A stretch of DNA of 19,404 nucleotides from assembly GCA_964487115.1 (NCBI GenBank), contig CAZAPD010000039.1, positions 1 through 19,404 on the forward strand, given 5' to 3'. The translations under genes were made by a program, and so were the position numbers. Under the pieces are notes generated by a model. The model had not been told where the DNA came from and did no database searches. It saw only the letters and a program-made list of their open reading frames with translations. This DNA is from an uncultured Thermococci archaeon. Lineage in GTDB: Archaea > Methanobacteriota_B > Thermococci > Thermococcales > Thermococcaceae. Shown piece by piece: positions 5,777-9,090 of the stretch. How positions within the stretch are numbered: position 1 is the stretch's first letter; each line of letters opens with the position of its first letter.

Positions 5777-6292
5777 TCAAAATTTAATTCTCTGGATAGA
5801 ATAATAGACAACATCATTATCCTCATCAACTACAGCAAGCACCATAGTTTTCCTTACCCCATGAGCAACTCGAACACGAGCAGTTAGATCATTGGGAAAC
5901 ATTTTTTGGTTTTCTGATACAACCCATATAAGCCATTGGGCATGTTCATCCATACCTTTCCTATAAACCCTAAAATGGGAACCAAACTTAAGGGCTGTTT
6001 TTACAATATAACCCCTGTCTCTGAGATCTCTATAAACAAGGAACTTTAAATCAAATTGTTCATCTTTTTTTCTGCCAAGATTGAAGATATCTCTCAAAGA
6101 GAGGTCCCTATCATTGTCAAACACTCTTATCTTCCCCTTCTCCAAGAGGTAGGCCGCTTCAATGAGCGAGAGGAAGAGCTTCCCGTTCACGACCTCACCA
6201 AAGTAGCGTTTGTTATAAAACTGGTTTATTGCCTTCTTTGTTTCGCTGAAAACTCTATCTCCACTCAGATAGAACATCACCGCTTCCTTCAT
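5777..6292 (-). CDS. endA: tRNA-splicing endonuclease (short, alpha4 type)
   Basis: LSLIEAAYL, VYRDLRDRGY, LKFGSHFRVY (catalytic Tyr), DEH (His), AHGVRK (Lys). ATG 6292 overlaps the rimI TGA. Confidence 0.95.
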   Translation of the reverse strand: MKEAVMFYLSGDRVFSETKKAINQFYNKRYFGEVVNGKLFLSLIEAAYLLEKGKIRVFDNDRDLSLRDIFNLGRKKDEQFDLKFLVYRDLRDRGYIVKTALKFGSHFRVYRKGMDEHAQWLIWVVSENQKMFPNDLTARVRVAHGVRKTMVLAVVDEDNDVVYYSIQRIKF

Positions 6293-6798
6293 GAAATCCC
6301 TCCCCATTCCCTGGCCGGTACCATCATGTAATACGCATCCTCACCGTCGGCGTAATAGCCTATTATCCTCTTTACTTTTCTGAAGCCAAGCTTTTCATAG
6401 AGCTTTATCGCTTTCTCATTGCTTACTCTAACTTCAAGCCCTATATACTGGGCTCCCTTCTTGACAAGCCTTTCCATAACCTCCAACATCAGAGCCTTGC
6501 CTATACCGTTTCCCCTGTATTCGGGGTCAACGGCTATGCTCATTATGTGTCCCTCAAGGTCAGGCCTTAGATACGCCATTACATACCCTATGACCCTGCC
6601 GTTGTATTCTGCAACAAGAAATGTGTCAGGATTGTTTTCAAGAAACATCATAAAAATGCCCCGTGGATATTTTTCCTTAAAGGATTTAACCTCTATCCTA
6701 CTTATCTCAGGAAGGTCAAAGAGCTTGGCTGGTCTGATTACAACCATAGCCAGAGGAATCCTTTTATGAGCTGTGAGTTCCTTGGAGGATACACTCAT
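6289..6798 (-). CDS. rimI: RimI/Ard1-like N-terminal acetyltransferase (GNAT)
   Basis: GHIMSIAVDPEYRGNGIG acetyl-CoA motif, LEVRVSNEKAIKLYEKLGF, YYADGEDA. Confidence 0.9.
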   Translation of the reverse strand: MSVSSKELTAHKRIPLAMVVIRPAKLFDLPEISRIEVKSFKEKYPRGIFMMFLENNPDTFLVAEYNGRVIGYVMAYLRPDLEGHIMSIAVDPEYRGNGIGKALMLEVMERLVKKGAQYIGLEVRVSNEKAIKLYEKLGFRKVKRIIGYYADGEDAYYMMVPAREWGGIS

Positions 6799-6830: not shown

Positions 6831-6849
6831 TAAGCAGTCTCCAGATAGT

Positions 6850-6908
6850 GAGTGATGAGCACTCTCGAATCTGACTCAGGGATGATGATCGGATTCCTGG
6901 CTGATTCT
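6850..6908 (+). ncRNA. Box C/D 2'-O-methylation guide sRNA
   Basis: Box C GTGATGA 6852-6858, 12-nt guide, D' CTGA 6871-6874, C' ATGATGA 6882-6888, 12-nt guide, D CTGA 6901-6904. Canonical archaeal spacing with an upstream TATA box. Confidence 0.93.
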
Positions 6909-7187
6909 CCCTTCTTATATCCAATGCTGACCTCTTCCCTTTGGGGGGTTCGGATTAACTCCTCGCCAACGACGGTCAAGGTAAGAGGGTTCCTCGAACC
7001 CCTCAGGGAGAGCCTTCCCCCATTCCCACTACCCCCCACAAGAGCAGGAAGGCCCGGGATTATTGTTTTTGATGACCACTCTTAGACTTCCAACCGCTTA
7101 AAGGCGGTCTTTGAAGAACGCCTACCGGAGTCATCCCTGCAGGGACAGGGACACAGCGAAACTACTCCTCTAATCAGGTTGCCTCAG
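6907..7187 (-). ncRNA. Putative TnpB omegaRNA/reRNA-like structured RNA with 3' guide
   Basis: TATA at 7216-7207; paired segments 7135-7129/7077-7071, 7053-7047/7018-7012 and 7002-6995/6952-6945; scaffold ends at right-end TCAG (6927). Transcript ends are estimated. Confidence 0.55.
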
Positions 7188-7298
7188 AGTGCCACTTTCA
7201 GACCCTTATTAAAAAATTTTAATGGTTTCGCTCCTCACGAGCTGGTTTTAGAATTCCTACATCCCCGCCTTAAAAAGCAAGGCTTTCAAAAGAAAAAG
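6927..7298 (-). mobile_element. Non-autonomous IS200/IS605-family element (MITE/PATE-like), no tnpA or intact tnpB
   Basis: Minus-strand left end TTAT|CTTTTTCTTTTG-AAAG-CCTTGCTT-TTTA-AGGCGGGG-A (7302-7262) and right end GAAC-CCCCCAAAGGGAAGAGG-TCAG (6951-6927). Architecture parallels IS608 (TTAC...AAAG-hairpin; GAAT-hairpin...TCAA). Contains a tnpB C-terminal-like remnant. Confidence 0.75.
7207..7222 (-). promoter_or_regulatory. Internal TATA box of the element
   Basis: Minus strand TTAAAA-TTTTTTAATA immediately upstream of the GC-rich structured region. Confidence 0.5.
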
Positions 7299-7312
7299 AT
7301 AAAACTTAAATC
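7298..7312 (+). promoter_or_regulatory. BRE/TATA of the herA-mre11-rad50-nurA operon
   Basis: GATAAAA-CTTAAAT about 20-35 nt before ATG 7330/7345. Confidence 0.5.
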
Positions 7313-7344
7313 CTTCCCGAAATAGAGTTATGGAAGGTGAGAAC

Positions 7345-9090
7345 ATGCAGAATATAATAGTGAAAGATAAACGGGTGGGTATAGTCAGGGGAGAGGCTAC
7401 TGTTTCAACATATCAGTTTTCAGCTCATCCAGATTCAAAGCTAAAATTTGGTGAATTTGTCGCTGCTAAAAACCGCGAAGGAGAGTGGGTTATAGGAAAT
7501 ATAAGAAGGCTGGAAAATATAAACTGGCTCCTCAGTGAGGGAAAAAGCACTTACTATTCTCTGGAGCTTGATTTAAATGAATACGGAGAGAGCATAGAGG
7601 CGAATGAAGCCCTAATAGCCACCGTCCGAGTTCTGGGGAGGATAGTGAAAAATGGAAGCAGAATTGAAGTTGCTCCTAACAGGGTTCCAATACCCAATGG
7701 GAGAGAGGTTTACAGGGTAAATAATGAGCTGCTCAAGGCAATATACAACGGAGGACCGGGCTACATTGAAATAGGAACCCTTCTGCTGAGAGATGAGGTT
7801 CCCATATACCTCAACGTCGATGAGCTTGTATCAAGACACTTTGCTGTTTTAGCCGTTACCGGAGCGGGCAAATCAAATGCTGTTGCAGTAATGCTCGGAG
7901 GAATCGTTGAAAGGCTTAGAGGAACTGTTATTGTTCTCGATCCTCATGGGGATTATGTAAAGCTGAGCCTGCCGAATACCGGGAAAAAATACGTGAAAAT
8001 AATCGAAGCCAAAATTAAACCAGAGGAAATGGACGGAGAGGAGCTGGCAGACCTTATGGAGGTCCAGAAAAATGCGGCAATACAGAGAAACTTCCTTCTT
8101 AAGGCATGGGAAACAGTAAAACATGAAAATCCACAGCTTGGCGGCAGGGAGCTGATTGAAGAGCTCAGACTAAAGCTTGAGAAATGGGCAAGAGACAGAG
8201 AGGGAAGTTACTGGGATGAGTATCTTCAGGGATACAGAGAACTGGAAAAGATAGATTCAAACACCGTTGGTACGATAACACGCCTAACAATGCGCATTTC
8301 TCGTTTTCTCAGGAATTACGGGCATGTCTTAACCAGCGAAGATATAATCGCCCAGATAGAACCGGGCAAGGTAAACGTCATTGATTTAGGACCTTTGGAC
8401 GAAGGTCAAATGAAGGTTGTCGTCGGGAAGCTCATCCAGAAGGTCTTTGAAGCCAGAGTTGATTATGAAAAAGCCCGAAAAAAGATGGAAAGAATCAGAG
8501 GCGAGCTTAGGGAGGAGAGGGCTGTAAAGACCTCTGCGCTTGAGAAAGAGGTTAAAGATCTGGAAAAGACCATGAAAGATATCGAGGTTAAAAGCAGCGC
8601 TTTAGCAGAACCAATTCTTCTGATAGTCGAAGAGGCCCACATATTCGCCCCTCAAGGAGAAAAAAATGATGCTGTTAGAATTCTCGGCAGAATAGCGAGG
8701 GAGGGTAGAAAATTTGGTGTGGGACTTGGGGTCGTATCCCAGAGACCAAACAAACTCAACGAGGATATACTGAGCCAGACCAATACAAAGATAATCCTCA
8801 GAATCGTCAACCCCCGGGATCAGGAATACGTCCTCAAGGCGAGTGAACAGCTGAGTGAAGATCTGCTCAGGGATATAGCCTCCCTTGGAAAGGGAGAGGC
8901 TGTTATAGTTGGACAGGCAATCAGCCTGCCGGCGCTCGTAAAGATACACAACTTCAGGGCAATAGGCGGAGATTATGGAGGAGAGGACATAGGGGTCGTG
9001 AACAGATGGCTCAAAAGAGCTGAGATTGAAAGGAGAGAGATGGAGATACTGGAAGAATACAAGGAAGAGGGGATAGACTTTGACTATTAA
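7345..9090 (+). CDS. herA: Bipolar DNA helicase/translocase HerA
   Basis: N-terminal HAS barrel, [15 protein letters not shown]alker [16 protein letters not shown] Walker [24 protein letters not shown] before ATG 7345 (alternative start 7330). Confidence 0.95.

Follow-up and report, generated by a model that had tools for sequence, protein, structure and literature searches.

Is the 372-bp, gene-less stretch that separates the sRNA sR5 from herA in a hyperthermophilic archaeon a guide RNA that its host has adopted, a guide that still works for its own spread, or the remains of a mobile element? The question is raised by a 19,404-nucleotide contig sequence from an uncultured Thermococci archaeon (henceforth the window), whose initial annotation proposed a protein-free IS605-type cassette encoding only a TnpB guide (omega) RNA, immobilised and possibly domesticated. 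We consider it likely that the window copy is a decaying member of a family of selfish IS200/IS605 mini-transposons without protein genes, and we set out below the evidence for the element, for the family and for the decay, together with the other readings that this evidence bears on. The features discussed are collected in Table 1.

Table 1. Features of the element in the window and of its surroundings (window positions).
Feature	Position	Strand	Remark
rimI-like acetyltransferase, followed by endA	6289..6798	-	downstream of the element's RNA
sR5, host C/D-box sRNA	6849..6905	+	convergent with the element; Rfam RF01304 at 53.1 bits (gathering cut-off 40)
3' flank, would-be guide	6907..6926	-	original host sequence
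Right end	6927..6951	-	GAAC, collapsed hairpin (about 3 bp), GAGG-TCAG cleavage tetramer
TCAG cleavage tetramer	6930-6927	-	GAAC at 6951
tnpB 3' tail / omegaRNA scaffold	6952..7063	-	tnpB-like 'type A', frameshifted
Conserved 5' RNA domain	7064..7199	-	closing stem and four hairpins; predicted start near 7199
P1 closing stem	7195-7186 with 7082-7072	-	
Four hairpins inside P1	7180-7160, 7151-7134, 7132-7117, 7109-7092	-	
P0 palindrome across the predicted start site	7191..7205	-	broken in the window copy
BRE/TATA promoter inherited from the parent IS	7216..7229	-	activity inferred from sequence
Left end	7263..7286	-	AAAG guide tetramer (7286-7283) and subterminal hairpin (7282-7263), weakened
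Target tetramer / likely TAM	7299..7302	-	outside the element; TTAT here, TTAC in empty alleles
herA TATA-like box	about 7301-7311	+	abuts the insertion point; promoter inferred from sequence
herA	7330..9090	+	first gene of herA-mre11-rad50-nurA

Results

A gene-less IS200/IS605 mini-element lies between sR5 and herA

The whole element (6927..7298, minus strand) is a gene-less IS200/IS605 mini-element of the PATE (palindrome-associated transposable element) type, composed, in order, of a left end, the IS promoter, a structured 5' domain of about 135 nt, a tnpB-tail omegaRNA scaffold and a right end. All motifs that the initial annotation had placed on the minus strand were found at their positions. 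Subterminal hairpins stand at both ends, as in IS605-type parents, with a guide and a cleavage tetramer at each end and no terminal inverted repeats, and the element holds no protein-coding gene, its sole coding trace being a frameshifted tnpB tail that lacks a start. A 77-aa plus-strand ORF (6852-7085) overlaps sR5 and was not taken as a real gene. IS608 carries the tetramers AAAG/TTAC at its left and GAAT/TCAA at its right end, which we take those of the present family to resemble.

The limits of the element are exact, because three empty alleles, found in the closest relatives (G064, G047 and G053), read TTTTAC joined straight to the 3' flank; the element thus runs from 7298 to 6927 and was inserted 3' of TTAC without target duplication. 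The TTAT proposed initially as the left-end motif sits where it was claimed to be, but is not the original target: it is a C-to-T mutation of TTAC that followed insertion. Fetching the relatives' loci by way of the flanks gave 29 sequences, 12 of them with both flanks readable, and the insert is absent from all 12, the gap between the flanks measuring 157-292 nt versus 529 nt with the element. A profile search detected neither 5' domain nor tail nor right end at any of the 29 loci. These empty sites do not date the insertion, since relatives may have excised the element precisely.

A DNA search with the element gave matches in 69 of 97 Thermococcaceae genomes, far beyond chance. Over its 5'-terminal 90 nt it matches the left ends and promoters that precede tnpA and tnpB genes in relatives, and over its 3' part the tail of tnpB genes encoding ~440 aa. 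Similarity to IS605/tnpB ends, on which the initial annotation had staked its element call, is therefore present in Thermococcaceae relatives, and the empty sites, the matching ends and the breadth of the matches all bear out a protein-free IS605-type element.

The element belongs to a family that has moved within the Thermococcaceae

Searched with a covariance model of 18 copies, one of them the window's, 54 of the 97 Thermococcaceae genomes gave 234 matches, at most 20 in any one genome; 36 genomes from other families of the phylum gave none. The copies analysed further are mainly the best-scoring of the 234: 102 are distinct, and 97 pass a 60-bit filter and have a visible tail start. The analysed copies share one order of parts, from left end through domain and tail to right end, the right end being present in 93 and the left end in 89 of the 97; the length is 377-418 bp in the 33 copies with a clear TTAC boundary. 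Among the 62 parsable left ends the tetramers are AAAG in 42 and TTAC in 35, and among 93 right ends GAAC in 69 and TCAG in 91. Thirteen within-genome pairs are 93-99% identical yet differ in their flanks, and 90 distinct flanks occur among 93 copies. The family has moved recently, as near-identical copies stand at different sites.

A near-full cognate tnpB is found in 45 of the 54 genomes with the 5' domain versus 18 of the 43 without it, a comparison whose tests are inflated by the non-independence of kin; the query used detected no near-full cognate tnpB in the remaining 9 of the 54. The domain thus appears to travel with the cognate tnpB across genomes.

The 3' part resembles an omegaRNA scaffold derived from tnpB

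The 3' part of the element translates as KTIIPGLPALVGGSGNGG and then, in another frame, as KALPEGFEEP, as had been noted at the outset, and the likeness to a TnpB C-terminal tail proposed there proved correct: it matches this tail in Thermococcaceae TnpB genes (e.g. ...KTITPSLPALAGGRGNGGKTLPEGFEEP). The protein at locus L025 matches guided_TnpB (NF040570) at 187 bits (cut-off 100). As in an omegaRNA, the scaffold is homologous to the 3' end of the cognate tnpB, ends at the right end and leaves the guide outside the element. Across the family, 89 of 93 tails have drifted from coding sequence yet hold the helices of their parents, and a tandem-GA internal loop persists in 78 of these 89 non-coding tails. 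Perfect GACC/GGTC pairing between a loop and the 3' end occurs in 81 of the 93 tails, as counted with a search pattern that presupposed the loop motif; a pseudoknot in which an internal loop pairs with the 3'-terminal bases is described for omegaRNA in the accessible text of PMC10097598. On these features, the tail makes a stronger case for an RNA than the 5' domain does.

The tnpB-like tail is carried by 4 of 93 short elements, the window copy among them, and conversely the non-coding tail type ends a tnpB gene at 1 of 30 loci. Tail types therefore cross between short elements and tnpB genes, and scaffolds have been exchanged both ways, which fits the use of one TnpB group.

A conserved 5' domain lies behind an inherited promoter

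The TATA box noted initially is present, but it is the native promoter of the IS, which tnpA/tnpB elements have at the corresponding position. The BRE/TATA box is matched in 82 of the 97 copies while the surrounding spacer varies; it lies 26-27 nt from the domain in 56 of 66 measurable copies, and the domain begins with a G. This G, within GAAGAGGCCAC, is the predicted start of the family's RNA (7199 or nearby on the minus strand of the window), and the same spacing would give the parents a nearly leaderless tnpB message. The window copy has lost about 6-7 nt of the spacer that the family has between promoter and RNA. Across the predicted start lies P0, which keeps a mean 0.95 of its pairs in the family and 0.5 in the window copy; copies in genome G085 carry a compensated variant. 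P0 and the closing stem P1 are mutually exclusive, and the 5' arm of P0 precedes the predicted start. P0 may serve to bind a protein, or may act as a hairpin in DNA.

The initial annotation had missed that about 135 nt of the RNA form a separate conserved domain rather than tnpB tail. This segment, between promoter and tail, is missing from full tnpA/tnpB elements and has no match in Rfam. In an alignment of 18 copies, 89.5% of the cells pair, and the covariation score exceeds all 500 shuffles and all slid controls, while two of five covariation measures do not rise above shuffles (54 and 68 of 500 as good). A tree-aware test on 97 copies left two structure pairs and one off-structure pair that beat all 40 nulls. 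Paired columns changed 6.6 times and unpaired columns 14.8 times on average. G.U outnumbers A.C by 40 to 15 on internal branches and by 67 to 53 on tips, which points to selection in lineages that were still active and to drift in copies that had died. We regard the support for the domain structure as moderate; RNA and top-strand single-stranded DNA fit the G.U bias alike.

A profile search of 40 loci for an origin of the domain in full elements gave a best score of 8.3 bits versus up to 9.8 in shuffles. Alignment of the domain with the zinc-finger coding region of tnpB gave colinear anchors that were equalled in 102 of 2000 and 25 of 300 shuffles, and in the control the reverse complement scored 27 versus 28.5. 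A hammerhead or other ribozyme was rejected, its core being unconserved by eye and without an Rfam match, as was an alternative long-range helix, P2, which is thermodynamically minor (0.08-0.14).

In family rank, the interior of the window copy is more decayed than its ends

According to the initial annotation, the ends had decayed while internal stems persisted. Both ends are indeed weak, but 19 of 75 hairpins at the left end and 19 of 93 at the right end (the latter judged by folding) are no stronger. Of the three G.T pairs described in the left hairpin, one is the family consensus, and one pair of this hairpin is a compensated C-G to T-A change. Persistence of the internal stems is partial, the whole RNA folding with z = -1.26 (17 of 200 shuffles as good). 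The domain, with an identity to consensus of 0.64 (median 0.78), is third lowest of the 97 copies, a rank that appears worse than it would among all 234 because the 97 are the best-scoring; its fold (z = -1.96) is the worst of 25 (family median -4.4), and that of the tail has z = -1.29 (median -2.8). In family rank the internal domain is thus more decayed than the ends, the reverse of the pattern first proposed.

About 28 nt of the kink-turn-like tandem-GA arm are deleted from the scaffold, and the predicted pseudoknot (loop 7014-7011) is down to two Watson-Crick and two G.U pairs, among the three weakest of 93. The closest 5' relatives, the G085 copies (79-81% identical over about 170 nt), keep the start-site palindrome, through compensation, and the spacer at full length, so that the losses are the window copy's own. 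A strain variant, seen in one contig at depth 7, has three more C-to-T changes, all non-compensating. Still kept are the promoter box, P1, three of the four hairpins, of which the second is compensated, and a formally possible pseudoknot. The window copy is most likely inert or nearly so, a fossil. If the TAM is the target sequence, as in known systems, an empty allele of this copy would have TTAT in place of TTAC.

The kept parts would speak for a trans guide that still works, one that is transcribed, loads cognate TnpB and cuts TTAC-bearing empty alleles or competes for TnpB. The host has, moreover, the 3' half of a cognate tnpB (209 aa, 70-75% identical to intact cognate genes), whose frame is open to the end of its contig, and the element is present in three vent DNA datasets. 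We nevertheless think a working guide improbable: beside the shortened arm, the near-collapsed pseudoknot, the short promoter spacer and the weak fold, the cognate tnpA of the host is frameshifted, the 5' half of tnpB is not in the assembly, and no excision joint appears in the contigs of the vent DNA runs, which show presence only. The intact TnpA of this host is just 31% identical to the cognate type.

The 5' domain might instead be a DNA module, its hairpins aiding TnpA-driven movement or guarding the single-stranded circle, with the RNA incidental. The IS moves as the same strand, P0 is conserved though one of its arms precedes the predicted start, and the loops of the domain include GNA and GNNA types, which form stable DNA mini-hairpins. 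We give this reading a slim chance, however, as full tnpA/tnpB elements do without the domain, a conserved BRE/TATA precedes the start of the domain by the canonical spacing, and the non-coding tails retain an RNA-type pseudoknot together with the tandem-GA loop.

A domesticated host RNA, regulating sR5 or the herA repair operon, for instance, or aiming TnpB at an invader, is hardly credible despite its place between sR5 and the herA promoter and its weakened ends: such an RNA would be marked by a conserved orthologous locus and by structure kept while the ends decay, and here all 12 readable orthologous sites lack the insert, the interior outranks the ends in decay, the RNA is among the most damaged of its family and, as shown below, its guide finds no convincing second target. 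The immobilised, domesticated guide of the initial annotation thus finds no support, and we return to a decaying selfish mini-transposon as the reading to pursue.

Guide targets and genomic surroundings

For the guide of the window copy, the host genome has two weak matches, and no second site pairs over 12 nt with fewer than 2 mismatches. A search of viral sequences gave 51 16-mer matches, none extending past 15 of the 20 guide bases, which we treated as chance, and BLAST against plasmids and phages yielded nothing useful. A motif scan across named genomes proved insufficiently specific, with 5 Thermococci among the 80 matches listed, and 10 viral matches. No family sequence was detected by motif search in the T. 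kodakarensis transcriptome supplements other than files 13-15, most tables giving coordinates alone.

At the insertion site, the target overlaps the edge of the herA TATA-like box (7299-7311), and its C-to-T change falls in the likely BRE region of herA. On the other side, a transcript of the element would run head-on into sR5, and read-through past the guide would be antisense to it; the sR5 region is itself disrupted in G064 and G053.

Elsewhere in the host, another IS605 group lies at C64:1-1604 (L033), where tnpA looks intact and tnpB falls into two reading frames. Fused left-end/right-end remnants of about 50 bp from the same IS group as the window element occur at C98:17834-17879 and on C73, C30 and C6. 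Two decayed siblings were also seen: C98:5917-6050 shares the shortened tail and collapsed right end of the window copy (88% over 65 nt), and C100:16395-16700 retains part of the 5' domain. All that the host has of the window element's IS group is debris, made up of these siblings and fusions, the frameshifted tnpA and the half tnpB at a contig end.

Discussion

The family among known mini-elements and stand-alone omegaRNAs

PATEs were described from Haloquadratum walsbyi (PMC3119063), with a PATE-like element in Halanaerobium (PMC7290912). As far as the accessible text of these two reports goes, the window's family shares with them the absence of terminal inverted repeats, near-terminal palindromes in common with IS605-type elements, the lack of target duplication and a length too short for a transposase; some PATEs also retain a disrupted C-terminal segment of tnpB, and end-only fusions occur, as they do in our host. 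Unlike the PATEs of these accounts, the present family has a promoter and a folded domain of ~135 nt that is missing from its full-length parents. RNAs derived from PATEs, and sense-overlapping tnpB RNAs, are reported in the available part of PMC4615843.

Also related are the stand-alone omegaRNAs, which the portions at hand of PMC10691335 and bioRxiv 10.1101/2023.03.14.532601 present as mobile, without effector or transposase, in genomes that hold a cognate TnpB. These and the omegaRNA-encoding PATEs have in common with our family a flank-derived guide and a proposed use of TnpB in trans. Activity in trans has been shown for other systems in those sources, and we infer it for the window's family; an extra 5' domain is present in ours and none is described for theirs in the same portions. 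At the level of the family, then, the element would work like a stand-alone omegaRNA PATE, a kind already published. What looks to set the family apart is its 5' domain, which appears undescribed: we found neither family nor domain in the literature, with ISfinder, subscription journals and bioRxiv supplements outside the scope of the search.

Expressed RNAs of related origin are known from Pyrococcus abyssi, where, in the text available of PMC3124441, sRkB/sRkC and sRk48/sRk52 are repeated intergenic loci with their own BRE/TATA and L7Ae-binding kink-turns, related to the 3' ends of tnpB (orfB), and sRk52 has a longer primary RNA whose extra 5' stem is processed away. Identity with sRkB/C, sRk48/52 or sRk49 was rejected, insofar as the sequences given there allow, as sequences and right ends differ by eye and belong to other tnpB groups. 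HgcC (RF00062), sot0042 (RF02656) and the sotRNAs of IS1341-type elements have the same right-end hairpin and GAGGAGGUCAG 3' end as the family (PMC4615843 and PMC4247193, in their accessible parts), although neither the HgcC nor the sot0042 model contains the 5' domain. Cognate tnpB tails reach 52.5 bits with HgcC (cut-off 50) and 49.3 with sot0042 (cut-off 88); short copies of the family stay below both thresholds, at no more than 40 and 27.3 bits, respectively, and the window copy matches no Rfam family at E<=1.

Identity with HgcC was rejected, since true HgcC (>95 bits) mostly adjoins a different gene: it stands back-to-back with a divergent gene of ~370 aa whose zinc-finger C-terminus is TnpB-like by look. 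The back-to-back layout gives the RNA a separate promoter within a full element, and suggests that HgcC may be the omegaRNA of a divergent-layout TnpB group. High-scoring HgcC with the divergent ~370-aa gene is found at loci L305-L309, L317 and L328, and gene-less versions at L310 and L311.

A proposed model: a protein-free family that would borrow TnpA and TnpB

The cassette proposed initially, an omegaRNA that borrows TnpB, is upheld as to its parts, for a tnpB-tail scaffold does stand behind a promoter, and its use would need TnpB in trans. For the decaying mini-transposon family that we favour, we propose the following. By sequence, the ends are those of the local IS605/IS1341 group, copies sitting after TTAC without duplication, and by analogy with IS608 and ISDra2 a TnpA made elsewhere would move the element as single-stranded DNA. 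The inherited BRE/TATA would drive transcription of about 300 nt and some flank, and the 3' half of this RNA would, as omegaRNA, load TnpB made by full elements; the loaded TnpB would cut empty alleles flanked by TTAC, and recombination would restore the insertion. Most likely, each insertion would take its guide from its own 3' flank and so defend its own site. Our best guess for the 5' domain is that it replaces the lost mRNA: its closing stem would pair with the very 5' end of the RNA and shield an untranslated transcript at high temperature until TnpB arrives. TnpB perhaps then trims the domain off, by analogy with the trimming of its own mRNA into omegaRNA, for which the part of PMC10278001 available speaks. 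In the window copy, the 5' domain was probably joined to a tnpB-like tail by recombination with a full element, and the scaffold arm, the right hairpin, part of the promoter spacer and the TAM were lost afterwards.

More generally, gene-less omegaRNA elements may need a 5' module to beat TnpB's loading of its own mRNA, recruiting TnpB in trans by mimicking or replacing the processed message, with the present family as a thermostable example; we offer this as a speculation that we rather doubt. If it were true, the family would have spread further than many of its parents, with as many as 20 copies in a genome, and would swap scaffolds with them, and the 5' module might be transferable to engineered TnpB guides as a stabiliser or loader.

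The window copy, as a fossil, matters little in itself. What the family offers is a set of about 230 natural variants of an omegaRNA from hyperthermophiles that need no longer encode protein, and with it a 5' domain absent from catalogues; it also points to a widespread thermophilic TnpB group of ~440 aa with a predicted TTAC TAM. The role of stand-alone omegaRNAs is called unknown in the accessible text of PMC10691335, and the family makes the question testable, both as to self-site defence with a borrowed TnpB and as to what lets omegaRNAs load in trans.

A truncated omegaRNA tail of the family, without left end or 5' domain, lies at L355:1380-1640 (G022) and at L359 (G036), in the same site between the genes for ribosomal proteins L11 and L1, and the two are 89% identical. 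Full-length matches to this locus are confined to these 2 of the 97 genomes, and the tail is possibly a candidate for co-option, or else one old insertion that both share.
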